The notes beneath the pieces were generated by a model that made no database searches, was not told the DNA's origin, and saw only the letters and a list, made by a program, of their open reading frames with translations. Of a stretch of 62,076 nt of DNA, positions 3,830 through 58,986 are shown in pieces. The translations under genes and the position numbers were made by a program. Position 1 is the first letter of the stretch; every line of letters begins with the position of its first letter. This DNA is from a virus (lineage: Duplodnaviria; Caudoviricetes), in IMG/VR virus record IMGVR_UViG_3300028399_000007, positions 1 to 62,076 of that record; one strand, written 5' to 3'.

Positions 3830-4064
3830 ATCTAATTACCTCTTTTTCGATGGTCTTGTAAACGATCTGGACTTCGCCCGTGTCCCGTTCAGTGCCGATA
3901 GCAATATCCGTTATACCTTCGCCCAATGCTTCCCGTTCAGCATTAGCGTCCTCAATAGTTTCCATGTTATCGCCTGCTACCCATTGAACATGTGCCGACC
4001 AGCCTAATGTGAAACCAGCCACGAAAATTGTAATGGCGATATAGATCAATGCACTAGTTTTCAT
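3729..4064 (-). CDS. i-spanin (Rz-like)
   Basis: N-terminal TM, periplasmic helix, C-terminal Cys; start placed at MKTSAL. Confidence 0.8.
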   Translation of the reverse strand: MKTSALIYIAITIFVAGFTLGWSAHVQWVAGDNMETIEDANAEREALGEGITDIAIGTERDTGEVQIVYKTIEKEVIRYVETPTADRTCLDPAAVGLLNQAAGGANVPVDP

Positions 4065-4581
4065 GGTGATGCTCCCTGTGATCTCCATGGTGCGGCTTTT
4101 TGGGCGGGGCAGGTGTAACTACAGGGACAACAGGTGCCGGATCGTTGTCCTCGATATATCTAAGCCCAACCCCATAACTCCCTTCGACATAGTTCTCAAA
4201 CAACAAGCCCTTTGCCCATAGTTCCCCCGTAGTTTCATCGCCTGATACTGATCCGACGATGCGCCCCACAATGGAATCAGTATGCGGCTGGTACCCGATC
4301 CCACCAGACACACGCAATCCGTTATTTTCAGACTGCCGCGCCAGATAGTAGAGATTGTCGGTCACATCATACCCGGCACACGTTCCTGAGTTGCAGACTT
4401 CTATGGTCCAGTCATTGAAGCGCAGATCATAGCCGATCATAACTTCCCCCGCTTTTGTCACGGAGCACTGAACCATAAGGACCAGCACCATGCCAGCTAT
4501 AAAAGTCAAACCATACCGGCCTAGTGGCTGGGATATAGTCCACCGAAACGTGATCACGATCTTATCAAGTAGTTTATTCAT
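4054..4581 (-). CDS. exported beta-strand-rich protein with Pro/His-rich tail
   Basis: Hydrophobic segment, alternating Gly/aromatic strands, PAPVVPVVTPAPPKKPHHGDHREHHHEN tail. Confidence 0.6.
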   Translation of the reverse strand: MNKLLDKIVITFRWTISQPLGRYGLTFIAGMVLVLMVQCSVTKAGEVMIGYDLRFNDWTIEVCNSGTCAGYDVTDNLYYLARQSENNGLRVSGGIGYQPHTDSIVGRIVGSVSGDETTGELWAKGLLFENYVEGSYGVGLRYIEDNDPAPVVPVVTPAPPKKPHHGDHREHHHEN

Positions 4582-4774
4582 CTTCATTCCTCTGCCATTT
4601 GTCGTCCACAGTTGAGAAACCAACATAAGAGCCTACTATCGATCCAACAAAGAAATAGAATGGTGCTGTCAACACAGCCGCCATTTGCTCTGACATTGGA
4701 ATCAATGGGTAAATCAACCCAGCCAGCATGGCAAGCCACGCCATACGCCTACGATTCTTCCATCTGTCATTCAT
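4574..4774 (-). CDS. putative holin
   Basis: 66 aa, two TM segments, charged ends, in lysis cassette. Confidence 0.6.
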   Translation of the reverse strand: MNDRWKNRRRMAWLAMLAGLIYPLIPMSEQMAAVLTAPFYFFVGSIVGSYVGFSTVDDKWQRNEDE

Positions 4775-5036
4775 TCAGGGCCTCCAGTTCACGTTGATAG
4801 ATCGCCTGCAAAACACGGTCGCTCTTAGTGTCCTCGTTGTTGGCGATTCTGACCTCGATCTCTTTTAGTCGGTAGGACAAGAACAGGTACTGCTGTTGCT
4901 TCTGAACACTACCCATCTGTTCCCATGTCACATATCGGGTATCCAGCGCCCACAGGGCGACAGCCCCGACCATGACGGCGAGTAACAGGAGGGTGCGGGC
5001 TCCAGAAGCCAGTTCAACAAGCCGTTTCATATCCAT
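4767..5036 (-). CDS. single-TM lysis-cassette protein
   Basis: N-terminal TM; gene context. Confidence 0.6.
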   Translation of the reverse strand: MDMKRLVELASGARTLLLLAVMVGAVALWALDTRYVTWEQMGSVQKQQQYLFLSYRLKEIEVRIANNEDTKSDRVLQAIYQRELEALNE

Positions 5037-5365
5037 ATAGTCAAACCAATTTGGACTAGTGCAACAATCAGCGTCATAATGCTAAACCCTACGCGCATAG
5101 ACATACGGAAGGACTTTATATCACCACGTATTTTTTCGCCTTCAGTAGCCGTCATAAAATCACGTTCCATTTCCCGGCGTATCTCAATCTTGCACCTGTC
5201 TATATGCCCGTGAAATTCCTCTATCTTTTCAAATAAACGTTCAAGTTTATTATCAAGTTTCGTTGTCATGCTTTTATAGCTGTCAACCGCAGTAATCAAC
5301 TGCGCTTCCAAAAATTCAGTCTTGGCCTGCAGGACAGCCATATCACGATCAAGATCACCCGCCAT
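5027..5365 (-). CDS. coiled-coil protein with C-terminal TM (holin/antiholin-like)
   Basis: Heptad region plus C-terminal TM, next to endolysin. Confidence 0.55.
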   Translation of the reverse strand: MAGDLDRDMAVLQAKTEFLEAQLITAVDSYKSMTTKLDNKLERLFEKIEEFHGHIDRCKIEIRREMERDFMTATEGEKIRGDIKSFRMSMRVGFSIMTLIVALVQIGLTIWI

Positions 5366-5921
5366 AACGCCACCCCTTCAATGCGTTTGCAATAGCTTCA
5401 CAGGCTGCTTTTCTATGCTTCCTGATAGCGCCTGAGTTATGTACAAAATCAGGTTCAATGATCACTGCCGGGCATTTTGTTTTTGCCAGAAAATAATCAG
5501 GCTTTTCATCGCCCTCCACGTCACCATGGTAGTCAACGCGCCCCGGCACGTCCATACGATACCATCCTTCCTTTATGCCCCTGTTTGGGAAGTACATCGG
5601 CGCTATGGATCGTTGTATGATCTGTGCCAAGTGCTTACCTTTACTGCTCTTAGGGTAGTACAGCGTTTCACAGCCACGCCCAACAGGTTTACCGTCAATA
5701 ATTGCGCTATTAAAGTGCACCTCTATAGCTGCATCACAGTTATGTGAATTTATAAACGCAACTTTTTCACGCAATAAGCCGGTAGGCACAATCAACGCAT
5801 CCGATCCAAGTTGCATGGCCAATTCATCGACCCATAGTACAGCCTCGTCATGCTCATTAAAGCCATTGTACTGCGCACCTTTTGCTTTGGGGTGGTGACC
5901 TGCTGATAATGCAAATAACAT
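5355..5921 (-). CDS. endolysin, N-acetylmuramoyl-L-alanine amidase (Amidase_3)
   Basis: SAGH..E, EVHFNS, PAVIIE zinc-amidase motifs. Confidence 0.9.
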   Translation of the reverse strand: MLFALSAGHHPKAKGAQYNGFNEHDEAVLWVDELAMQLGSDALIVPTGLLREKVAFINSHNCDAAIEVHFNSAIIDGKPVGRGCETLYYPKSSKGKHLAQIIQRSIAPMYFPNRGIKEGWYRMDVPGRVDYHGDVEGDEKPDYFLAKTKCPAVIIEPDFVHNSGAIRKHRKAACEAIANALKGWRYGG

Positions 5922-5923
5922 GC

Positions 5924-6904
5924 TTACCTCCAAGAAATTCCTACTATATCCACCGGCGGGCCGCCGCGTTTCAGTTTCTGGTTTCCGATCTTGATGTATT
6001 GGCGGATCATGTCGCTGACCTCTAACCCAGCATCGTGCATTTCCAATAATTCAAAATTGCAATCACATACCGGGTCCAGCATGATGACCTTTGCATCTGG
6101 CGGATAGTTGTCCATCTGAAAAGGATGTGGGATCAACGGCATGTCCCTGTGTTTGATTTCCTGCGTGATCTCAAGCTCCACCATTGTTTTCTGCGCGTCA
6201 AGAAATTCTTTTCTCGCCACAGGATCAGCGGCGATTTGGTCGGGCGTCCAGATACCTTGCAACAATCCGGCGGAACCGCCTTTCTCCATGCGCCTCGGGA
6301 TACCATCGCGGACATACTTCGCGGCAACATTAGTAGGCCCGTTATAGTGCCATGGCGCTTCTGGGGCTACATAGGTAGAATGTATTTTTATAGGGCTACC
6401 AGAGACTACGGCAAACATATACAAGCCCACCGTCCCATCGCCGTGATTGTAAGGCGGAGAGGCTTGAATGTATCTTTGCCTAGCATATCCTGAACCAGAC
6501 GAAGGGCTATATAGTATGATACCAGCTTTGGGTGAAGTGCTGAATTGTCTTGCCGCATAATCATAGCCAACGCCAGCATCGTCATAGCCCCAATAAATAT
6601 ACGTCCCAGAATCAGAATAAATTTGAGGATAGAAACCGTAACTACCTCCCGGTAAAGCAAGATCAGCACTTGCACCCACACCTGTAACGCTAACAGTTCC
6701 AGTAGTCGTTTTAAGTTCACCCTGTCCTACCTGCCCAGAACCAATCATAGCTTGGACAATATAATTATCTGCAAGTACGGGTGCGCCCGATGCTTTTTCA
6801 AACATCGCAATAGGATTATCACGCAATAGCGTTATCAATGACGTTGTTACGGGGCTTTCTGAATCAACGTCACTGTCTGGTATAGGTGTGTAAGTAACTG
6901 CCAT
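5924..6904 (-). CDS. tail fibre / tail tip accessory protein
   Basis: Last tail gene; N-terminal IPDSDVDSESPVT..LRDNPIA motif of siphovirus tail proteins. Confidence 0.6.
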   Translation of the reverse strand: MAVTYTPIPDSDVDSESPVTTSLITLLRDNPIAMFEKASGAPVLADNYIVQAMIGSGQVGQGELKTTTGTVSVTGVGASADLALPGGSYGFYPQIYSDSGTYIYWGYDDAGVGYDYAARQFSTSPKAGIILYSPSSGSGYARQRYIQASPPYNHGDGTVGLYMFAVVSGSPIKIHSTYVAPEAPWHYNGPTNVAAKYVRDGIPRRMEKGGSAGLLQGIWTPDQIAADPVARKEFLDAQKTMVELEITQEIKHRDMPLIPHPFQMDNYPPDAKVIMLDPVCDCNFELLEMHDAGLEVSDMIRQYIKIGNQKLKRGGPPVDIVGISWR

Positions 6905-6911
6905 AGTGTCC

Positions 6912-9290
6912 TCAAATTATCTTGTACGCGCCACTGCCATCTGCAAACGAAGCATTGGCTGATGCAATGATATAGCTGTACCGTTCCTTTTCCTCTGTCG
7001 TCGCCGATGAGTAGTCCACCATTGTACTAGGCCCTATAAAGGCGTAGCGTCCACTGAAATTCAGTACCTGTGCCCGGATACGATGTTTCTCCCTGTCAAC
7101 GATCTCAAAAGCCTCAATAGCCTGTACTTGCTGTAACTTGGCCGATCCGGTCACGTCCTGTTCACCTGTCTCAATATTAAATATAGACGATAATTCGATA
7201 TTATCATCCTTGTCATCGACCTCAAAAGTGATGGTTTTAGCGCCGTTCTCATAGTTGCGTATGATCCTGCTACCCAGTGAGATCGCTTGGGCTTGGCTGG
7301 TTAACCAACGTGATCGTATCTCGCGCACACGCTTTACCCCAAACTGATCCTTGCCTTCCTTACCAAGTTCAGTTTGTACGTATATAAACTTGTAATTATC
7401 TGAGCTATCGTCATCGACCAAGTTACGTTTTCCATGGTATATCCATATCTGAGATATGCGCTCACTATCGTTATCATCAATGACCAAGCTATCAAGCAAT
7501 ACGTGCCGATTGCGCACAATGTCGTTAACAGTTTCAGATCGCGTAGCTGGTGCCAGTACGTTTATTTTGATCAACTGGTTTGTATCATCCCACCAAAGAT
7601 CGATCATAAAATGTTCAGTTATCTCTTTTATAATATCAACGACACCTTCCGGCTCATGGATCGTGCCCGACAGGTTTTGCGTAGCCCACCTATCGCGTAC
7701 TAAATCCCATTGGTTCTTATCTATAAACCCACGTGGTATATCCGTATAGTTGATCAAAATATCATATAACGCATCAACAACATTGACACTGCTGTAAACA
7801 ACGCAATCTTGTACCAGTGTGGATATATCATGGTCTATGGCCGTTGTACCACCTACACCACGTGTGCAGTTTTTGAAGATACCGTATGCCGTGGAAGATT
7901 CAGCACTGACATAATCAACAAGCTCATCCTCAATGCGTATCCTGCCAGCCGACCCATAGACACCAAAAATTGACGATGTATTGACGTACAATGTGGAAGC
8001 ATTGGCGCTTACCGCCGCATATAAAACACCATCACTAGGTAACGGGATCCGCGCACGATCCTTGTCCGCCAAGTTCAAAATATCCTTGCCCATAACCGTT
8101 ACTCTGCCACGGCTATCAGGCCCTTTTATTTTGTCTATCGTGTAGTGGCGATTATGGAAGTCATACAATGAGAATCCTTGATCTGGATCGATGTACCCGG
8201 TACGCACACGCATGATCCGGCCAACATAGTAAGGGTTACGTGCCAATAATTTACCAAAAAATGTACCTTGGCTTGTGTCATAAGTGCGCGTCGATGCGTA
8301 AGGATCGATGCCACGATCATGGTGTACAAAATCACTTAATTGGATACTGAACGCACCGCGCTCCGATAATCCTTTACCCGGTTTGATCCGCGTAGGCGTG
8401 AAACTTGGCAAACCTTGTATAGCGGGAAACATCTCGAACCCGCCCGGTACATTGGATTGATTTGAACAAAAGCGATATATCTTGGGTACACCGCGTTCAA
8501 CGGTCGTATCAACTGCGGTTGCATGGTTGGCATTGCCTGAATAATCATCATAGACCATTGACGATACACGGTGAAAAGTCCAGTTACCGATCAATGTTGA
8601 CGTTATTGCACTGCCTATAAATTTTTGGTGATAAAGCGTATTGACTTCTGTTGTAGTCAATGCAGTGGCATAAATTTTTACACCGTCTATCAGGCCGTTC
8701 ATCGTATTAGCCGATGCCTGCGCACTGATTTCAAGTCTGCCATTTTTAGAAAATTGCCTGCCTGCAAAAGTACGCGATCCGCCGTGCTTGCCGTTTACAA
8801 AACAACGCATGGTAGATCCGTCATAGACGCCTACTACATGGTGCCAGTGGTATTTGATCAAATGATCACCGGGATGCGCAGATGCGGTTACTGCTGATGC
8901 AACGCCTGCGCTGACAATAGCAAATTTTGCGTGACTGCTTGAATCACAATAGAGCAGAAACCCATTACCTGATTCATTGTAGGCCACGACATAGTTACTG
9001 TCCTTGTGCTGGTTGATATTAACCCAAGCCTCGACAGTCACAACACCGGACACGATAGCCGACATAGACGAAACGTAGGCATAGCTCGATGATCCGTTAC
9101 AGCCTATAGCAAATATATTGTAGTTGGCCGTATCTTGACAGGTGTTGCGCGTATTGTAGCACTCACTGCCTGCTGCCAGTGATGCGTTGCACGGTATTTT
9201 TCCATAAACATTACTGCAACGATCAAGCGCCATTTCAAAAATGGTAAACGGCTGCCTGCCTATTTTTTTATTAAGTACATCGTGCGCCAT
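6912..9290 (-). CDS. tail tip/hub protein with inserted LamG (concanavalin A-like) domain
   Basis: TVEAWV..WHHVVGVYDG..FVNG..GLIDGVKIY LamG signature; position after TMP. Confidence 0.75.
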   Translation of the reverse strand: MAHDVLNKKIGRQPFTIFEMALDRCSNVYGKIPCNASLAAGSECYNTRNTCQDTANYNIFAIGCNGSSSYAYVSSMSAIVSGVVTVEAWVNINQHKDSNYVVAYNESGNGFLLYCDSSSHAKFAIVSAGVASAVTASAHPGDHLIKYHWHHVVGVYDGSTMRCFVNGKHGGSRTFAGRQFSKNGRLEISAQASANTMNGLIDGVKIYATALTTTEVNTLYHQKFIGSAITSTLIGNWTFHRVSSMVYDDYSGNANHATAVDTTVERGVPKIYRFCSNQSNVPGGFEMFPAIQGLPSFTPTRIKPGKGLSERGAFSIQLSDFVHHDRGIDPYASTRTYDTSQGTFFGKLLARNPYYVGRIMRVRTGYIDPDQGFSLYDFHNRHYTIDKIKGPDSRGRVTVMGKDILNLADKDRARIPLPSDGVLYAAVSANASTLYVNTSSIFGVYGSAGRIRIEDELVDYVSAESSTAYGIFKNCTRGVGGTTAIDHDISTLVQDCVVYSSVNVVDALYDILINYTDIPRGFIDKNQWDLVRDRWATQNLSGTIHEPEGVVDIIKEITEHFMIDLWWDDTNQLIKINVLAPATRSETVNDIVRNRHVLLDSLVIDDNDSERISQIWIYHGKRNLVDDDSSDNYKFIYVQTELGKEGKDQFGVKRVREIRSRWLTSQAQAISLGSRIIRNYENGAKTITFEVDDKDDNIELSSIFNIETGEQDVTGSAKLQQVQAIEAFEIVDREKHRIRAQVLNFSGRYAFIGPSTMVDYSSATTEEKERYSYIIASANASFADGSGAYKII

Positions 9291-30327: not shown

Positions 30328-33300
30328 CTAAGTCCCAAGTACCTTGATTTCTTTAACTGTAGCAGGTTTTTTGCCAAGTAGGCGGTATCTAGTTTCGTCA
30401 CCACAATTATGAACAATCGCACCGCTACGTAAAATAAAATGATGCGCATCAGGTACAGTTAAACAATACACATCATGCTTGCCTGATCTCTCTATTCTTA
30501 CGACCCCAACGCGCACTACATGGCCTGCTACAGCATCTAGTTTTTTGATATTTGTTAACAATGAATCTATTACCACATACTGCGCATATTCTTTCAACGT
30601 TATCGACGCCTGATCTAACCCTATACCTTGTTTTGCAAGCATTGGAACAGAATTTCGATGTTTTCTTACCGGCAATTTTAACCATATATTTTTTACCGCA
30701 CATGACACACTCTTTTTCAATCTCTCTATTAAGTGCACTGGCACAGTTTTTTTCGTACTGTTCCTTATGCCATTTTCTTCCTTCTTCTGAGCTATGCCAT
30801 TTCTTAGCTTGCTTACAAGCGTTTTTTTGATTTCTTTTAAGACGTTCCTTATTTTTCTCGCACATCCCATGAATGCGTAAATGCTTATCAGCCTCAATGA
30901 CTTCCAAATTATCAATGTCATTGTTTGCCCTGTTACCGTCAATATGGTGTACGTGGTATCCATTGGGTATTTTGCCGTGGTATTTTTCCCATACAACCCT
31001 ATGCAACCTTTTACCATTTTTCTGAAAATAGCTGCCACATAAATAATACCTTTCGCCACAAAATTCTTGGATTGTGCTGCTAATTTCTTTAACGTACATT
31101 TTTTATGTTCCTCATTTACCCCTGCAACAAAAATACAGTGCCCTACATTTTTTAAGTGCCGTGCTTCTACCCATCCTTGATCTGTAAAAAATAAATGATC
31201 TGGTGTACAACAAACACAAGACCCATCTTCAAAAAATACTTTTATAGTATCAGCATTGCTTTCAATCATCCTGCAATTTTCAAACTTTTTATAGCCGTCA
31301 ATTGTCAAAATCTTTGCACCGCTATTGCACAATGATTTTATAGGAATGAATCCTTTATCAGTTGCTATCTCCTCATCACCGTGAAAACAATGATCCTCAG
31401 CATCCGTGTCCACATCCTCGCGGTTCTTTTCCGCCCGTGGCAATACCGGCACAGTACGTATAAACCCATCATTACAAGTATTAAACACGAATAATCCCGG
31501 CTCTTCCATAGGCAATTCCAAGGATGCTGCTAACCGTGTACGCAATAGTTCCCATCCCGATACGCGCGATCCTGACGATTTATTAGCTTCTGTCCATTTA
31601 ACACCTACTGCACGCATATCATCTGCAATACAGTTGTCATTCTGATTGTCATAAATAGAGCTATCCGCTGGACCCGGTTTTACGCGACCGTATATGCCCA
31701 TCATCTTTTCCCGCTCTATGATCCCCTTAGCAATATCCTTGGCATTCATTTTCAAACCAACATTAGGTTCGCCTTTTTTCCATCCGTACCATTCACCGAT
31801 GCGGAACAATGTTTTTGCAGGCCACGCTCTTTTAGTGCCGTCGCGCAATATGGCTTCCGTACCATCGCTTTCCGCCCACCAGCCTACCGAAAACGGTCTG
31901 CTACTGCCCCAGTCAAATGATCGATCTATGTACCAGCTATCAGGGATCTTAAACGGCTCAATCACATGCACACTACGATCCCATACATCATCGAACATGC
32001 CGCCGCTAACAATGTCCCAATCACCCTCCAACATGGCACGGACCAGTTCAGGATCGCCAAGGCCGCTCAACCTGTCCTTATAGTCAGGATCATCAATCAT
32101 CATGGTCGGATTATCACTAAGGAACGCGGGGATGAACTGGCGCAACATACCGCCTTCCTTTTTTGGCATCCTGATTATCGTGTTTGGTTGTGCAATGTTT
32201 ACAAAATCCGCCTTTACCCAGTTATGACCTATGCCACCGGGGTTACTGCTATTTATGATCCTTGGAAAGCGATCTTTGTATTTATCAGGTAACACCAGAC
32301 CCGGCGCACGGACACGTGATCGCAAATAGGCGTAAATCGTTTTTGTGAACATAGTCAATTCATCTACTAACAATAAATGTATTTCAGAACCGTGGTAGTT
32401 CATGCGATCTTTTTCATGCTGGCAATGGCACAAAAAAATCTTGCTATTGTTCCAGAATGTGATAATGCCCTTACCCGTATTTATTTTTGCATGCCCTTCA
32501 TCGATCCAATCTGATAACAGGTTAAAAAATCCCTTTGGTCCCTCCATGTGGTTCTTCCACAGTTCAGGGTATGTGCGGCGAAACAAATAAACCTGTAAAC
32601 CGGGGATTTCCGCACACCACATGATCGCAGCTATGCGCATAAGGTGACTATTATGCGTAACGATAAAATCATTTGTTATGTATAAATTGTTTGGGTGAGA
32701 AACAGAAATACAGACAGTTTCACAATGCCCGGCGGGTTCTATCTTATCAAGATAAAGCCCCATTGACTGATGTTGTTTACTATTGCATCTCTCGGCTTTG
32801 CGCTTAACACGGAACATCCTTTGTGGTTCACGGATCTTTATCCTGAGCGTATAGGCTTTTTGCCCTTTTCTTTTTTCACCTTTATACACATAATTCGGTA
32901 TTTTTGATTTTAATGAAACAATAGCGCCTAACGATCTTGCCAAGTGCCTTACGTCATCAGCCAATTGCTTTGATACCGTTGTAAAATAGCAATCACCATC
33001 CTTATCAACAGTCCCGTCTGTGTCCATTAGACCCTGTAGTAAAGACCATCGATCTTCAACGCCGCCAAACAAGTAAATGCGCGGAATAAACTTACTATTT
33101 GCCAAACATCCGTAAACACCAAGATCAACCAAGTCATCATAAACAAGTTTTTTCGGTACCGTATATGACTTGGCTTTGTTGTTATTGTTTTTGCCGACAG
33201 GATTTAGCTTTTTATCATAGTTGTAAAAATCTGATAAAATGTTATTTATGTTATCAACTATCTCACGATCAGGCGTACAAAAAGTAGTAACGCCACTACG

Positions 33301-33846
33301 CAAGCACCCATCTCCTAACAACACGCCAAGCAAATACGGTTCTACGGATCGCTTAACGTGTTTTTTTGGTCCTGCATTCTCTCCATGTACGTTAAATGCA
33401 CATGGCTCAGATATAACAGGGATCGCGATCCTGTTTTTGCGTTTTGTGTTGCGCTGGTAAAACTCGTAAATTTCTTTTGTTGTCCATTTACGCGCCGATG
33501 CTTCACCATTAACAGGCACATTACCTATCTTCCTGCTTTTACCTGTCGTCCAAGCAAGCCAAATATGATCGCTATCAACAATGGTTTCACTACCATCGGA
33601 CCACGTTAACTTGTAAACTTTTTGCTTGCCTTTCGGGTAATAGCCAATAATTTTTTGCACTGTTCCATCAGTTGCACAAATTGCGTCGCCTACCTTTACA
33701 TCCCTAAATTTTCTCCACCCAAACGGCGTTAAGATAAAATCATCAAATCTCTGCCCTTTTCCGGGGCCTGCGCTTCCGCCGAAGAGGATTTCAGTTGCGG
33801 GGGAGTTGAAAACGTAGGCTTGCTTTGGATGAAATGAAAGATCCAT
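30328..33846 (-). CDS. terL: terminase large subunit with two inteins
   Basis: Walker A GGSAGPGK[intein]S, Walker B LLLVDE, SSNPGG, nuclease FDWG and EDH[intein]CGDETRY; start set at ATG 33846. Confidence 0.93.
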   Translation of the reverse strand: MDLSFHPKQAYVFNSPATEILFGGSAGPGKGQRFDDFILTPFGWRKFRDVKVGDAICATDGTVQKIIGYYPKGKQKVYKLTWSDGSETIVDSDHIWLAWTTGKSRKIGNVPVNGEASARKWTTKEIYEFYQRNTKRKNRIAIPVISEPCAFNVHGENAGPKKHVKRSVEPYLLGVLLGDGCLRSGVTTFCTPDREIVDNINNILSDFYNYDKKLNPVGKNNNNKAKSYTVPKKLVYDDLVDLGVYGCLANSKFIPRIYLFGGVEDRWSLLQGLMDTDGTVDKDGDCYFTTVSKQLADDVRHLARSLGAIVSLKSKIPNYVYKGEKRKGQKAYTLRIKIREPQRMFRVKRKAERCNSKQHQSMGLYLDKIEPAGHCETVCISVSHPNNLYITNDFIVTHNSHLMRIAAIMWCAEIPGLQVYLFRRTYPELWKNHMEGPKGFFNLLSDWIDEGHAKINTGKGIITFWNNSKIFLCHCQHEKDRMNYHGSEIHLLLVDELTMFTKTIYAYLRSRVRAPGLVLPDKYKDRFPRIINSSNPGGIGHNWVKADFVNIAQPNTIIRMPKKEGGMLRQFIPAFLSDNPTMMIDDPDYKDRLSGLGDPELVRAMLEGDWDIVSGGMFDDVWDRSVHVIEPFKIPDSWYIDRSFDWGSSRPFSVGWWAESDGTEAILRDGTKRAWPAKTLFRIGEWYGWKKGEPNVGLKMNAKDIAKGIIEREKMMGIYGRVKPGPADSSIYDNQNDNCIADDMRAVGVKWTEANKSSGSRVSGWELLRTRLAASLELPMEEPGLFVFNTCNDGFIRTVPVLPRAEKNREDVDTDAEDHCFHGDEEIATDKGFIPIKSLCNSGAKILTIDGYKKFENCRMIESNADTIKVFFEDGSCVCCTPDHLFFTDQGWVEARHLKNVGHCIFVAGVNEEHKKCTLKKLAAQSKNFVAKGIIYVAAIFRKMVKGCIGLYGKNTTAKYPMDTTYTILTVTGQTMTLIIWKSLRLISIYAFMGCARKIRNVLKEIKKTLVSKLRNGIAQKKEENGIRNSTKKTVPVHLIERLKKSVSCAVKNIWLKLPVRKHRNSVPMLAKQGIGLDQASITLKEYAQYVVIDSLLTNIKKLDAVAGHVVRVGVVRIERSGKHDVYCLTVPDAHHFILRSGAIVHNCGDETRYRLLGKKPATVKEIKVLGT
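30406..31389 (-). mobile_element. second TerL intein (328 aa) in nuclease domain
   Basis: CFHGD..CTPDH..DVYCLTV..IVHN|C. Confidence 0.85.
30473..31099 (-). CDS. HNH homing endonuclease nested out of frame inside intein 2
   Basis: LHRVVW..HVHHIDGNRANN..NL, two CxxC..CSxxC modules; own RBS GAGGA. Confidence 0.85.
   Translation of the reverse strand: MYVKEISSTIQEFCGERYYLCGSYFQKNGKRLHRVVWEKYHGKIPNGYHVHHIDGNRANNDIDNLEVIEADKHLRIHGMCEKNKERLKRNQKNACKQAKKWHSSEEGRKWHKEQYEKNCASALNREIEKECVMCGKKYMVKIAGKKTSKFCSNACKTRYRVRSGVDNVERICAVCGNRFIVNKYQKTRCCSRPCSARWGRKNREIRQA
32650..33756 (-). mobile_element. class 3-type intein with LAGLIDADG endonuclease in TerL P-loop (369 aa)
   Basis: Starts at Gly, DHIW, VCISV, VTHN|S; LLGVLLGDG and LQGLMDTDG. 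Confidence 0.85.
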
Positions 33847-33847
33847 A

Positions 33848-34051
33848 TCACTCGTCCGATTCTTTAGTGACAAATAAATACTTGCCGCATTCCGTGCATT
33901 TGATACGGCTTACATATCTGTGATCTCGCAAATCAACAAACAGGTAAAAAGAAAACGATCCACAACTACATTGGAAACAATAATCTTCAAATAATTCAAC
34001 TACGTTATCTTCATTCTTGTTCTTTTTCGCCATCATCATCACCGTCATCAA
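33848..34051 (-). CDS. small Zn-ribbon protein
   Basis: CSCG..CTECG. Confidence 0.5.
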   Translation of the reverse strand: MMTVMMMAKKNKNEDNVVELFEDYCFQCSCGSFSFYLFVDLRDHRYVSRIKCTECGKYLFVTKESDE

Positions 34052-42395: not shown

Positions 42396-42578
42396 TCAAA
42401 CTTCGCAATAAACTGCGGCGTCGCTGGGATCGATCATGGCGGTTTCGCCGTTGCCAAGTTCAACCTCAACAACCAGTTCGCCGTAGTAATCCTTGCCGTA
42501 GTCGAGAATGGTGCCGGGTACCAGTTGGTCAGTCCAGCCTACGTTAACGGTCTTGCCCTTTGCGTAGTAGTTGCTCAT
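42396..42578 (-). CDS. hypothetical protein
   Basis: Start-associated motif and promoter upstream. Confidence 0.7.
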   Translation of the reverse strand: MSNYYAKGKTVNVGWTDQLVPGTILDYGKDYYGELVVEVELGNGETAMIDPSDAAVYCEV

Positions 42579-42623
42579 TTTCCTAGCCCTCTTTGTTGTG
42601 GTGTTTATTTAACCTTCACTTAC

Positions 42624-42651
42624 AGTATAGCGGCTGGAATCAGGATTGCAA
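42624..42651 (-). promoter_or_regulatory. sigma70-type early promoter
   Basis: TTGCAA-N16-TATACT. Confidence 0.7.
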
Positions 42652-42736
42652 GGTTTTTTATTGCATTTTTTCAAAAATTTTTCCATTAAAATACTTATAT
42701 TAGAATATGCTAATATACGGATTTTTGGCCGTGGAC

Positions 42737-42764
42737 TTGCAAGGCTTTCCACGGTATGTATAAT
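42737..42764 (+). promoter_or_regulatory. sigma70-type promoter for large ncRNA
   Basis: TTGCAA-N16-TATAAT. Confidence 0.7.
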
Positions 42765-42769
42765 TGCGC

Positions 42770-43570
42770 CCGTGCTCGGGGCAGAAAGCCGTGGCAACAC
42801 GGTGCAAGGGGCGAAGCCAACATAGTCCCGCTTCTCACGAAGTAAGCCCGAGCAAGCCGAGTCCGCGGGGCATGCCCCGGCCTCCGTTCCTGACGGGGGA
42901 TAGCGGCGAGTGATTAGGGCTGTGTTAGGCGTAATAATCAAAGGCCATGCCTCATCGTGAGGTGAGGCGCAGCACGAAAGCGAGTCGGGATAGGACAAAG
43001 GGTAGGTCGGAAGTCCGAGCGGGCACGCAAGGGCGATGGCCAGTCAATACGGTCGTGGTCGAAGGATCACAATGGTCGTTGAAGACAGCCGATTACCGGG
43101 CACGGGAAAGGTACGAGGCGTGTGGCATACTGTATCTTCACGGATACGGCACCACTGATCGGCGCACGTCTTGGTTGGTAGCGTATGTAGCTCAGTTGGT
43201 AGAGCGCATCCCCTGAAAGGATGGTGTCGCTGGTTCAAATCCAGCCTAACGCGCATATTGTGGGAATATGTAAAATGCAAAGACGCCGATCAGCGTGTTA
43301 TGAAAGTGACCTAATCCTGTGGCCTTATGGCAACACAGGGTTCCCAAGGCCGCAAGCTGAGGGAACTTCGTCAGGACACGCACTCAGGTCGTTTAGCGGC
43401 GAACTGGGGTAGTTGAGCGGCGGAGTAGTAACACGGCATAGGTCTATTGCCTGACCTGTAAACAAAACGGCAGTCATGTCTGCTTACGACAGTGCGCTTT
43501 GCGGCTGGCGTGGACAACCCGGCAACAACAGGCCGCACCCTGTTGGTACTCTGGGGAAAGGGCAGATCAA
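42770..43570 (+). ncRNA. large structured noncoding RNA with embedded tRNA-like element (GOLLD-like candidate)
   Basis: No credible ORF; many stems and GNRA loops; bounded by promoter and terminator. Confidence 0.55.
43181..43253 (+). tRNA. atypical tRNA (anticodon loop CCTGAAA, nominal TGA)
   Basis: GCTC/GAGC D arm, CATCC/GGATG stem, GCTGG-TTCAAAT-CCAGC T arm; two acceptor mismatches, short variable loop. Confidence 0.6.
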
Positions 43571-43598
43571 ACCCGGCTTAATCTCAGCCGGGTTTTTT
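43570..43598 (+). terminator. intrinsic terminator
   Basis: CCCGGCT-loop-AGCCGGG followed by T6. Confidence 0.8.
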
Positions 43599-44036
43599 AT
43601 TGACTTTGAAAACTTGCGTGATCCGCAACCTGCGATCTTTTGCCCAATCCTGCACATTACCGCCTATTACTGCGAAGCAGTGATCAACGGTGAAACAGAT
43701 ATATTTTTCGCCCTTGCTTAGTGCGGCGGTGATTGTTTTCGGCGTGTAGCTGCTTGAACAGTTTGGCTTATAAAAACGCTTGTAAAGATTGGACGAGCAG
43801 ACAGGTGGCTTTGCAGCGATGTTGTAATAACTGCAACCAAACTCCGCAACTGCCTGCATGATGATCTTTATGTCTGTGCTGCAACGATTACGCCGCCCCA
43901 ATTTTTTCAAAATGAGGTGCGCCTCCGCATAGCTAACGCCACACACCAGCGATACGGCGACAACAGAGCAGTCGTTGCGCTCATTCTTAAATCCGGTGGA
44001 ATCTCGCTGTTCCAAGGTTTTGGCGTACAGGTTCAT
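43584..44036 (-). CDS. papain-like peptidase-fold phage protein
   Basis: NDCSVVAVS..H.FAV..G...DW Cys-His-Asp pattern. Confidence 0.55.
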   Translation of the reverse strand: MNLYAKTLEQRDSTGFKNERNDCSVVAVSLVCGVSYAEAHLILKKLGRRNRCSTDIKIIMQAVAEFGCSYYNIAAKPPVCSSNLYKRFYKPNCSSSYTPKTITAALSKGEKYICFTVDHCFAVIGGNVQDWAKDRRLRITQVFKVNKKPG

Positions 44037-44037
44037 G

Positions 44038-44154
44038 CTACACCTCACCCTGTCGGTAAACCTTGATCCGCGCGGCGGTGCGCTCTACCTTGGCCTGTGC
44101 TACGTTGATTGCAACGCCAGCCAAAACACAAAAAGCTACGAGTACATATTCCAT
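44038..44154 (-). CDS. 38-aa membrane peptide (not in ORF track)
   Basis: MEYVLVAFCVLAGVAINVAQAK.. directly after start-associated motif. Confidence 0.6.
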   Translation of the reverse strand: MEYVLVAFCVLAGVAINVAQAKVERTAARIKVYRQGEV

Positions 44155-51279: not shown

Positions 51280-54051
51280 ATGCCAAAAATACCGTTAGCT
51301 GTTATAGACTTTGAGACGCTGCGCATTGAGCCGCGCCCTGATTACCCACCAGAACCAGTGGGCCTAGCTGTGTTGGAGCCCGGTAAGCGCCCTGTGTACT
51401 TGGCATGGGGACACCCTTTGAAAAATAACTGTACTTTCGATGATGCTTACAAAACTTTGCATCGGATTTATGAAAGGTATTGTGTCGTTATGCACAATGC
51501 CGTTTTTGATCTTGAAGTCGCTGAAAAGTTTTTTGATCTGCCGCTAGTGCCGCCACATGGGTTTTGTGACACGATGCTTGAAGCATTTTTGTACAACCCG
51601 CGTTTCCCTGATATGAAATTGAAAAATCTGGCGGATAACCTGCTGGGTATGCCGCCTGTTGAAGAACAGCGATTGCACGAATGGATCCTGAGTCATGTTT
51701 TTACAAGTCAAAAAAGTGGCAAGGGCAGCATAAAAATATGGGATCACAGACCAAAAGGGCTGTATGCCATACCGCCGTCACAAGCCGGTGGGTTCATAGG
51801 CTATGCACCCGGTGACTTGGTGGGCAGATACGCCAAGGGCGACGTGGTGCGCACTAAGAAACTTCACAATCTTTTCATGCCCAAGATCAAAAAACTAGGC
51901 ATGATGGAACAGTGGGATGTTGAACATCGTGTTTCTATTAAGGCACTGGAAATGTCGCGCAGCGGTGTGCGTATAGACGTTGATAATCTGGCACCTGATC
52001 TTGAAACCGCCAAGAAAAAACTGGCTACTGCCGAAAGGAACGTTTACAAAAAATTGGGTGAGATAAATCTTAACAGCCCCAAGCAAAAAATAGAAGCATT
52101 TGAAAGCAGGGGTTTGGTGTCTGAATGGGAGTACACTGACAAAGGAAACCCAAAGACAAGTATAGACTCACTGATGCGCGTGTGTACGGATAAAAAACTT
52201 GTCAAGGATTTGAACATATATAGCAAGTACACCAAGATCATAGGCACCTATATGCAGCCTTGGCTGGCGTCTGCATTGAAGAACAACGGGTATTTCTACC
52301 CATGGTATAACACGATAAAGGGGGAAAATGATCGTGGTACCTATACAGGCAGGTTCAGTTCTAATTTTCAACAGGTGCCGCGTCGCGTCGAGGACGTATC
52401 ACTAAAAGGTTTACCATTCCTGCGCAACTACGTTATAGCAGATAAAAAATCGCACGTGCTATTTAACCGTGATTTTTGTTTTTCTGATGATACAGAAGTT
52501 TTAACAGATCGTGGTTGGATGTTATTCAAAGATTTAGGTAAAAATGAGCTAGTCGCTCAGTATAAAAATGGTGTTATCAGTTATGCCAAACCGCTTGCTT
52601 ATCAAAAAGAAAGATTTACAGGTAAAATGGTGCATATACATAGTCCCAAAAGTTGTAATATGTTGGTGAGTCCAGATCACCAATGCCTGCAACTGGACTA
52701 CAATAACCGGCCTGTGAAAATACGTGCCGTAGGTTATAGGCTTGGTCATTATAAGCAAGTTGTATCAGGCATAGTTAAAAATAAACAGTCCATTGATATT
52801 TCAATTGACTTGTTAAAATTATCTGTAGCAATACAAGCCGACGGCAAAATACTTTTTCAAAATACCGGCGTAAAAATTTCTTTCTATTTGAAAAAGGAAA
52901 GGAAAATAAAACGGCTTGAAGCATTGTTAAATGCGCTCGATATTCCTTACATAAAAAAAGCAATGGTAAGTAAAAAAGGCTTTTTCAGTTTCCTTTTTTA
53001 CATGCCTGATGACGTCAACAAAATTCTTGATACAGGCACAAAACAGTTTAAGCGTAGTCTGCTAAAACTTTCTTATGAAAACAGGCTGCTGTTTTTGAAA
53101 GAGCTTGGATATTGGGATGGATCAATCATTGGTGAAAGTTGGCAATACTTCAATACAAATTTAGCTAGTTTTGATTTACTGCAAGAAATGTGCGTCATAA
53201 CGGGTGTCAAATCAGTATTGAAGTACATGAAACGCGATGAGGTTAGAAAATGCTGCGGTTTGTTATATATGACTGTTAAGCACGCCGTTGATACAAAAAT
53301 GTTTAGCAAGGATTTTGTTGAATATGATGGCTATATGTATTGTGTCACTATGCCGCAAGGAACGGTTATTGTTAGACGTGGTGGCAACGCATTTATAACA
53401 GGACAATGTGGCCAAGAAGTACGGATCCTTGCGCATTTTGAAGATGGTGTGCTGTTATCCGCATTCAATAAAGATCCGGAATTGGACGGGCATAGTTTTG
53501 TCAATGATCTAGTAACCGAACTAACAGGCATTGACTACGGACGCTCTGCAATCAAAGCGTGCAATTTTTTGATCATCTATGGTGGCGGTGTTTACGCACT
53601 ATCACAAAATTTAGGGATCTCCTATGATCAGGCAGATGAGATATACAAGGCGCATGGTGATGCGCTTGTCGGTTTAGGTGAGTTGAAAAATGAGCTAAGG
53701 TTATTGGCACGCAGGGGAGAGATGTTTAAGACTGCTGGCGGTAGATGGTATGACTTTGAGGAAGGTTTTGAATATGTTGCGTTGAACACGTTGATACAGG
53801 GCAGTGCTGCTGATCATAGTAAACGTGCGTTATTGAATATATCCGATATGATAGAAACAAAAGGATATGACGCTAGGCTCATACTAACTGTGCATGACGA
53901 GTTTATGATCAGCGGCCCTGCAAGATGCAAAAAGAAATTTATGACGGATTTTCGTGAAGCAATGGAATATGATGAATTGTTTGATCTGCCTATGTTAACT
54001 GATGGCAAGATCGGCAAGTGTTGGGGGAAGATGGAAAAAGTTAACTATTAG
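51280..54051 (+). CDS. family A DNA polymerase with 3'-5' exonuclease and intein
   Basis: DFET, HNAVFD, TGRFSS, DF[intein]CGQEVRILAH, K..NF..IYG, IQGSAAD, VHDE. Confidence 0.92.
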   Translation: MPKIPLAVIDFETLRIEPRPDYPPEPVGLAVLEPGKRPVYLAWGHPLKNNCTFDDAYKTLHRIYERYCVVMHNAVFDLEVAEKFFDLPLVPPHGFCDTMLEAFLYNPRFPDMKLKNLADNLLGMPPVEEQRLHEWILSHVFTSQKSGKGSIKIWDHRPKGLYAIPPSQAGGFIGYAPGDLVGRYAKGDVVRTKKLHNLFMPKIKKLGMMEQWDVEHRVSIKALEMSRSGVRIDVDNLAPDLETAKKKLATAERNVYKKLGEINLNSPKQKIEAFESRGLVSEWEYTDKGNPKTSIDSLMRVCTDKKLVKDLNIYSKYTKIIGTYMQPWLASALKNNGYFYPWYNTIKGENDRGTYTGRFSSNFQQVPRRVEDVSLKGLPFLRNYVIADKKSHVLFNRDFCFSDDTEVLTDRGWMLFKDLGKNELVAQYKNGVISYAKPLAYQKERFTGKMVHIHSPKSCNMLVSPDHQCLQLDYNNRPVKIRAVGYRLGHYKQVVSGIVKNKQSIDISIDLLKLSVAIQADGKILFQNTGVKISFYLKKERKIKRLEALLNALDIPYIKKAMVSKKGFFSFLFYMPDDVNKILDTGTKQFKRSLLKLSYENRLLFLKELGYWDGSIIGESWQYFNTNLASFDLLQEMCVITGVKSVLKYMKRDEVRKCCGLLYMTVKHAVDTKMFSKDFVEYDGYMYCVTMPQGTVIVRRGGNAFITGQCGQEVRILAHFEDGVLLSAFNKDPELDGHSFVNDLVTELTGIDYGRSAIKACNFLIIYGGGVYALSQNLGISYDQADEIYKAHGDALVGLGELKNELRLLARRGEMFKTAGGRWYDFEEGFEYVALNTLIQGSAADHSKRALLNISDMIETKGYDARLILTVHDEFMISGPARCKKKFMTDFREAMEYDELFDLPMLTDGKIGKCWGKMEKVNY
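52477..53406 (+). mobile_element. intein in polymerase motif A (310 aa), ending in Gly-Gln
   Basis: CFSDDTEVLT..SPDH..MYCVT..ITGQ|C; LAGLIDADG-like AIQADG and GYWDGS. Confidence 0.85.
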
Positions 54052-58909: not shown

Positions 58910-58986
58910 GTGAGTATAGCTCAGTCTGGTAGAGCACTCGTTTTGGGAAAGAGTGGTCGCAGGTTCAAATCCTGCTGCCCGCACCA
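58910..58986 (+). tRNA. tRNA-Pro(TGG) with encoded CCA
   Basis: Cloverleaf, loop TTTGGGA, GGTTCAAATCC; one mismatch each in acceptor and anticodon stems. Confidence 0.8.

Follow-up and report, generated by a model that had tools for sequence, protein, structure and literature searches.

A probable divergent GOLLD RNA gene with a tRNA-like module in its linker, carried by an uncultured tailed phage

The IMG/VR virus record IMGVR_UViG_3300028399_000007 is 62,076 bases long, is estimated to be 76% complete, and was analyzed whole as a single window of that length. Two sequencing runs are listed as holding sequence of this stretch, both of them DNA runs labelled as hydrothermal vent metagenome (X1 and X2); the entire stretch is contained in X1, which may be its source. 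Phage genes on the record encode a head-morphogenesis protein, a primase, a DNA polymerase of family A, and a large terminase that bears an intein. The head-morphogenesis protein is at most ~31% identical to GenBank phage proteins, mostly those of phages of Gammaproteobacteria, and this similarity may be taken as a weak hint of the host. A minus-strand ORF of 1181 aa (30328–33873) joins the large-terminase N-terminal domain to domains for intein splicing and of the LAGLIDADG/homing-endonuclease type, and it has the look of a terminase split by an intein. The family A DNA polymerase is encoded on the plus strand at 51280–54051, with an exonuclease domain at residues 56–202 and a polymerase domain at residues 712–916. 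Its residues ~386–714 match PHROGs with the annotations PhoH, ribonucleotide reductase, and thymidylate synthase, a pattern compatible with a second intein or with the insertion of a domain. Just 2 tRNAs are found in the window.

Between the minus-strand ORFs that end at 42578 and 43584 lies a gene-free gap of ~1 kb, and it is here that the element under study is found (Table 1). An earlier note, made from the letters of the sequence, had described a GC-rich stretch without a credible ORF. This description holds, with a G+C content of 0.55–0.60 over 42700–43600 versus 0.44–0.47 in the flanks, and with zero matches in Pfam and PHROG searches for each of the 5 longest internal frames (129 aa on the minus strand, 89 aa and 81 aa on the plus strand, 78 aa on the minus strand, and 63 aa on the plus strand). 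The same note had claimed a strong promoter. The sigma-70-like hexamers are in place, but since 2 promoter-like sites were found in the region versus 1.6 ± 1.3 in shuffled sequences, the match by itself is not above chance. Transcription would most likely proceed from this sigma-70-type promoter of the gene's own and would end at the hairpin and T run that the note had called a terminator. This hairpin corresponds to the last conserved hairpin of GOLLD, the loop of which has the same letters in all sequences of the alignment described below, and, lengthened here to 10 bp and followed by the T run, it looks like an intrinsic terminator as well. The stop codon of the minus-strand ORF at 43584–44048 (PHROG 3754, unknown function) falls within the hairpin at 43569–43595, so that the hairpin may terminate transcription both ways.

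Table 1. Features of the putative GOLLD RNA gene and the second tRNA of the record (positions in the 62,076-base window).
Feature	Position	Strand	Remarks
Sigma-70-like promoter	42737–42764	+	-35 TTGCAA 42737–42742, 16-nt spacer, -10 TATAAT 42759–42764; 10/12 matches
GOLLD RNA gene, whole	42770–43598	+	~829 nt; predicted start, end at terminator
5′ domain, reduced	42770–43112	+	R1 and nhmmer matches
Long-range helix, 5′ strand TGCTCGGG	42773–42780	+	pairs with 42847–42854
Long-range helix, 3′ strand CCCGAGCA	42847–42854	+	pairs with 42773–42780
First hairpin, 3′ region	43113–43173	+	Rfam model positions 1–58; helix 21, 99.3% paired in 19 sequences
Bulge strand CTGATCGGCG	43155–43164	+	pairs with 43284–43293; pseudoknot helix closing linker
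Variable linker	43174–43283	+	110 nt, longest of 19 aligned
tRNA-like module	43181–43254	+	ARAGORN; 74 nt, anticodon UGA
Small extra hairpin CATATT-GTGGG-AATATG	43254–43270	+	insertion versus 18 aligned relatives; A1 columns 684–700
Linker-closing helix, 3′ strand CGCCGATCAG	43284–43293	+	directly after conserved GCAAAG motif
Conserved 3′ domain	43294–43598	+	motifs GAAAG..CTAAT (43302–43315), CGCAA, GAGTA, GTGGA, TAATCTCA; one inner-junction hairpin missing
Last GOLLD hairpin, loop TTAATCTCA	43569–43601	+	10-bp stem 43569–43595, then T run
tRNA-Pro (TGG)	58910–58986	+	second tRNA of the record, ~15 kb from the GOLLD gene

When Rfam is applied at its gathering thresholds, nothing beyond the two tRNAs is found in the whole window. 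With reporting by E-value, 43113–43590 matches the GOLLD model (RF02032) over its full length (model positions 1–416 of 416) with 134.8 bits and an E-value of 3.9e-37, or of 4.5e-39 on the record alone. The curated gathering score of RF02032 is 150 bits, which is an operational cut-off and does not correspond to a structural feature, and since 134.8 bits lies below it, a standard Rfam search misses the GOLLD at 42770–43598. Score is lost through ~27 deleted model positions and through insertions in the linker and in one late loop, with the deleted positions (~237–263 of the Rfam model) corresponding to a single hairpin at the inner junction of the 3′ domain. Kretsch et al. used a cmsearch cut-off of 1e-5 when gathering GOLLDs (PMC12286853), and by that practice the E-value found here makes the phage RNA count as GOLLD. 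The invariant single-stranded motifs of the family are all present, namely GAAAG-4-CUAAU, CGCAA, GAGUA, GUGGA, and the UAAUCUCA loop. GOLLD membership had been guessed in the earlier note from size and layout, with an Rfam search for GOLLD and ROOL named as one way to check it. The guess is borne out by the RF02032 match, even at a score below the gathering threshold, and by a separate match in the 5′ domain (see below), while an Rfam scan of 42500–43800 with E-values up to 10 returned no ROOL and no other large RNA family.

A motif pattern run on IMG/VR gave 88 stretches, with membership judged by a motif test; by this test, 6 of the 88 (L017, L027, L033, L040, L074, and L086) are without GOLLD hallmarks. 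The single hit of the first motif pattern in viral contigs (L002) was dismissed as chance, having no Rfam match. A second pattern, made from the part that the phage RNA shares with the L004 group of IMG/VR GOLLDs, led to five genome contigs, of which four carry a GOLLD above the Rfam cut-off (167–229 bits) inside a tRNA array and with a tRNA match within each GOLLD. These four come from Pelomonas sp. Root1237, two Pyrinomonadaceae MAGs, and one uncultured-bacterium MAG, and the remaining hit, in a Halorhodospira MAG (L094), was again due to chance, the sequence looking like coding DNA and giving no GOLLD match. The Pelomonas contig is from the isolate genome of a betaproteobacterium, and its GOLLD (167.4 bits) is surrounded, at ~4000–7950, by a tRNA array with over 20 matches, where a weak match to the tmRNA model (26.4 bits, below the cut-off) was also seen.

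The 18 GOLLDs of the L004 group and the four genome copies share with the phage RNA the type of 5′ domain and both long-range helices, and in 13 of the 18 the linker has a tRNA module at the same place. Unlike them, the phage RNA is the outlier of the alignment, and its blastn similarity to them is confined to the tRNA part. Nothing except this part was found by blastn when both domains of the phage RNA were compared with the 88 pattern hits, nor when the phage RNA was compared with the five genome loci, and blastn of 42700–43620 against GenBank phages gave only tRNA-sized matches, in 23 records. An exact 22-mer search of metagenome contigs had 0 hits, a search for relatives with the 154-aa neighbor protein found none, and a primase search recovered one distant locus at 27% identity. 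A literature search combining GOLLD and hydrothermal returned unrelated papers only. This is a divergent GOLLD that standard Rfam annotation misses, in a phage without close kin in the collections searched, from samples labelled as hydrothermal vent metagenome.

The RF02032 match leaves the upstream part of the element uncovered, and here the relatives are informative. A covariance model of 136 positions and 27 pairs (R1) was built from the 5′ domains of the 18 relatives with the phage sequence left out. Searched against the whole window on both strands, R1 matched 42781–42915 from end to end with 36.5 bits and an E-value of 9.3e-8, the second-best match in the window having an E-value of 5.2. 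An nhmmer profile of the same 18 relatives matched 42989–43179 with an E-value of 9e-15. Together with RF02032, these models cover 42781–43590 except for 42916–42988, and in the alignment this unmatched piece falls on a 5′-domain branch that the phage RNA has mostly lost. In all, ~45 alignment columns of the 5′ domain are absent from it, and the domain, counted from the junction before the second helix, is 335 nt long versus 351–396 nt in the 18 relatives. Among the 19 aligned sequences, no 5′ domain is shorter and no linker longer than those of the phage RNA, which also has one inner hairpin fewer. The 348 nt 5′ of the Rfam match fold with a z-score of −3.6 relative to shuffled sequences on the plus strand and of −0.4 on the minus strand, so better-than-shuffle folding of this part is limited to the plus strand. 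Judging from these matches, the large, less conserved upstream domain of GOLLD is present.

Covariation, which the earlier note had also put forward as a check, was assessed in an alignment of the full-length phage RNA with the 18 relatives (A1, 19 sequences). RNAalifold predicted 190 pairs on A1, 150 of them with at least one change on both sides. With the pseudoknot that closes the linker added, the structure comprises 195 pairs, for which 94.9% of cells are paired versus 36–41% with slid partners and 154 pairs are changed on both sides versus 61–78 with slid partners, and 0 of 500 shuffles reached any of these measures, the consensus having been derived from the very alignment on which it is scored and hence being biased in its favor relative to the slid controls. 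The helices of the 3′ domain (24–37) are 81.6–100% paired, with both-side changes in most pairs. The phage RNA taken alone forms 136 of the 190 pairs, with 29 unformed and 25 gapped, which amounts to 136 of 165 comparable pairs as opposed to just 57–73 with slid partners. Divided by region, the counts of formed, unformed, and gapped pairs are 73, 14, and 3 in the 3′ region and 63, 15, and 22 in the 5′ domain. Misalignment explains part of the 29 nonpairs, though not provably all of them. For 55 of the 136 formed pairs, neither letter is that of the pair most frequent among the other 18 sequences, which indicates that the structure is conserved where the sequence is not.

The three stems claimed in the earlier note can all be recognized in this structure. 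The TGCTCGGG/CCCGAGCA helix, the 5′ strand of which lies at the very start of the predicted transcript, is conserved in the relatives, where the alignment reads as the loop of the first hairpin facing a CTAAGC-type stretch in 18 of 18, with changes on both sides (for example GCATAG/CTATGC and CCGTGG/CCACGG). Helices conserved in relatives likewise coincide with CCGTG-GCAA-CACGG (42789–42802) and with TGTATC/GATACG (43131–43136 with 43143–43148). The helix that closes the linker (helix 22) has 9 pairs in the alignment, 6 of which changed on both sides, with 94.7% of cells paired; in the phage RNA it consists of 10 perfect pairs between CTGATCGGCG and CGCCGATCAG.

A nearer relative was found in run X2, a hydrothermal vent metagenome from a different study, as a 6,544-nt contig that resembles the RNA gene alone, from 42770 to 43588. 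The contig matches 42770–43196 with 31 differences and 2 gaps and 43435–43588 with 21 differences, and it is unlike the phage record beyond both ends of 42770–43588. Similarity starts 6 nt past the -10 hexamer and stops in the terminator stem. These limits support those predicted for the transcript and show that the RNA gene is conserved while its surroundings are not. By direct reading rather than automatic mapping, the 40 listed differences were sorted into 10 that make up five base pairs in which both sides have changed and pairing is preserved (43098/43103, 43491/43506, 43527/43544, 43529/43542, and 43530/43541), 11 that are one-sided and keep or gain the pair, 3 that convert a hairpin loop to UUCG, and 16 others in loops or in the unmatched variable part. 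Automatic mapping to the family consensus gave 9 differences that keep a pair, 1 that gains one, and 0 that break one; because of an alignment gap, this mapping mis-registers the small GNRA hairpin at 43096–43105, and the double change at 43098/43103 was therefore read directly. The change C42849>T leaves a G-U pair in the TGCTCGGG/CCCGAGCA helix. These compensatory changes show selection on pairing in the lineage of the phage RNA. The whole-RNA minimum-free-energy fold was rejected as the structure, since its long-range pairs are broken by the changes of this relative (6 broken).

These results bear on two readings in which the locus would hold no functional GOLLD. In the first, there is no giant RNA, and the region is a plain tRNA gene flanked by long unstructured DNA, or a set of short coding ORFs. 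Frames of 63–129 aa do exist and default annotation reports a tRNA alone at this place, but three independent models cover 42781–43590, the frames match no protein family, and the 11 listed X2 differences that fall in the 89-aa frame are spread 5, 3, and 3 over codon positions 1, 2, and 3, which is not codon-like. We give this reading hardly any credence. In the second, the element is a decaying GOLLD relic that has lost its function, as a score below the gathering cut-off, the deleted 3′ hairpin, and the shortened 5′ domain might suggest. Against such decay, the five both-side and eleven one-sided changes of the X2 relative keep the pairing and break no consensus helix, the invariant motifs are all in place, and a solved Streptococcus GOLLD described in PMC12990946 is without several helices and forms a cage all the same. 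We consider a relic very improbable. Taken as a whole, 42770–43598 on the plus strand is best explained as the GOLLD RNA gene of an uncultured tailed phage, with a probability that we put at roughly 0.9, and homology would make it a divergent yet genuine member of this known family.

The X2 contig also differs from the phage RNA in one block, where 234 unlike letters replace the 238 at 43197–43434 while the sequence on either side is 86–93% alike. The replaced segment runs from the D loop of the tRNA module, of which it takes in the 3′ two-thirds, through the linker to the middle of the 3′ domain, and it is either an exchanged cassette or a segment that has diverged much faster.

The variable linker, named J13/15 in PMC12990946, is 88–97 nt long where a tRNA module is present (13 relatives) and 46–57 nt long where there is none (5 relatives); the module, being absent from 5 of the 18 close relatives, is hence optional. 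Among the other pattern hits, ARAGORN finds a tRNA in the linker of 15 of 88, with widely varied anticodons. Linker tRNAs are described as sometimes present in GOLLD in PMC12286853 and are also treated in PMC12990946, so a GOLLD with a tRNA-shaped piece in the middle of the RNA is a layout already described and not a new kind of element. The central tRNA-like unit that the earlier note had seen in the phage RNA is found by ARAGORN and reaches 60.1 bits against the Rfam tRNA model, with a cloverleaf whose D and T loops are canonical. The D, anticodon, and T stems are fully paired (4/4, 5/5, and 5/5), as they nearly are in 20 other linker modules (78/80, 97/100, and 99/100, respectively). The acceptor stem has 5 of 7 pairs (104/140 in the other modules), with A.A and U.U mismatches at pairs 5–68 and 6–67. 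The anticodon loop CCTGAAA places a C at position 33, versus T33 in 20 of 20 other linker modules. The UGA (Ser) anticodon sits on a class I body of 74 nt with a variable loop of 5 nt and no long arm, while tRNA-Ser carries a long extra arm that seryl-tRNA synthetase recognizes. CCA is not encoded in the module.

One possibility is that the module is a working tRNA that is stored in the cage and later freed by RNase P and 3′ processing for use in translation. Phage tRNA genes often lack an encoded CCA, so its absence here is compatible with a stored tRNA, as are the 60.1 bits and the perfect D, anticodon, and T arms. Such "inhibited storage" is an idea put forward in PMC12990946. C33 and the two acceptor mismatches speak against it, as does a body of class I, with a variable loop of 5 nt, that carries a serine anticodon, and no separate RNA could be detected from the pseudo-tRNA embedded in a mycobacterial GOLLD (M. 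aubagnense; PMC6582537). We regard storage of a working tRNA as doubtful. Since the module preserves the shape of a tRNA but not its amino-acid end, we favor, with moderate confidence, a structural tRNA look-alike that is tethered in the cage and serves as ligand or decoy for factors recognizing tRNA shape. Weighing against a tethered look-alike are the score of the module as a tRNA, the acceptor stems of the 20 other modules, which pair above the random 37.5%, and the possibility that RNase P still cuts an acceptor stem with 5 of 7 pairs. With its defects, the module is a handy test case for whether such modules are ever released.

A close structural precedent is the env-38 GOLLD, an RNA of 833 nt that forms a 14-mer cage (PDB 9MEE; PMC12990946; Kretsch et al. 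2025, PMC12286853). The phage RNA, at ~829 nt, resembles it in its two-domain layout, its conserved 3′ motifs, its phage origin, and the order of a first 3′-region hairpin followed by a variable linker. It differs from env-38 in having a 5′ domain of ~343 nt instead of 420, in having one hairpin fewer at the inner junction of its 3′ domain, in scoring below the curated Rfam cut-off, and in the tRNA-like module of its linker, the linker of env-38 being ~42 nt long. For a trimmed RNA of this kind, the Streptococcus agalactiae GOLLD offers a precedent, by its published description rather than by sequence: at 700 nt and without P9, P11a-c, and P21b, it still forms a cage, a 12-mer (PDB 9L0R; PMC12990946). 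The elements missing from it may differ from those missing in the phage RNA, and S. agalactiae is a Gram-positive host.

A tRNA-shaped unit inside the linker is shared with mycobacterial GOLLDs in which a tRNA or pseudo-tRNA is embedded (PMC6582537; Morgado et al. 2020, as cited in PMC12990946). These lie within arrays of ~30 tRNA genes, and most described GOLLDs adjoin a tRNA array, whereas no array is found beside the phage GOLLD. The ROOL RNAs are likewise a large, phage-associated, cage-forming family with an inner linker, although unrelated to the phage RNA in sequence and fold. Hints at the role of GOLLD come from PMC12286853, according to which its expression is higher during phage lysis and it binds ribosomes in pull-downs.

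Homology and covariation show that the RNA folds into a reduced 5′ domain and a conserved 3′ domain, joined by the variable linker that the covarying pseudoknot helix closes. By analogy with the env-38 14-mer and the S. agalactiae 12-mer, the RNA would form a closed homo-oligomeric cage with the linker, and the tRNA-shaped module that it holds, turned inward. Since reviews tie missing helices to a different subunit number, the reduced phage RNA may assemble differently from either precedent. A bolder proposal joins three parts, namely a cage with a subunit number other than 12 or 14, a C33 look-alike that is never released and acts as a caged decoy for a host factor recognizing tRNA shape, and a cassette at 43197–43434 that is swapped as a unit between related phages; that all three hold jointly is a speculation we think improbable. 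What is known of the GOLLD family is unchanged by this member. As a compact natural variant, with no array, a reduced 5′ domain, and a hairpin fewer, it could help to define the parts that a GOLLD cage needs.

Two further observations concern the tRNA part. Peaks of depth at 43155–43265 in sequencing runs are made up of short contigs that match the tRNA part alone. In two viral contigs (L023 and L079), the GOLLD loci are 99.5% identical over 1003 nt, with 5 mismatches, one of which is the third anticodon base, so that ARAGORN calls Pro (tgg) in one and Ser (tga) in the other. The Ser (tga) call of this pair has the same anticodon as the module of the phage RNA.
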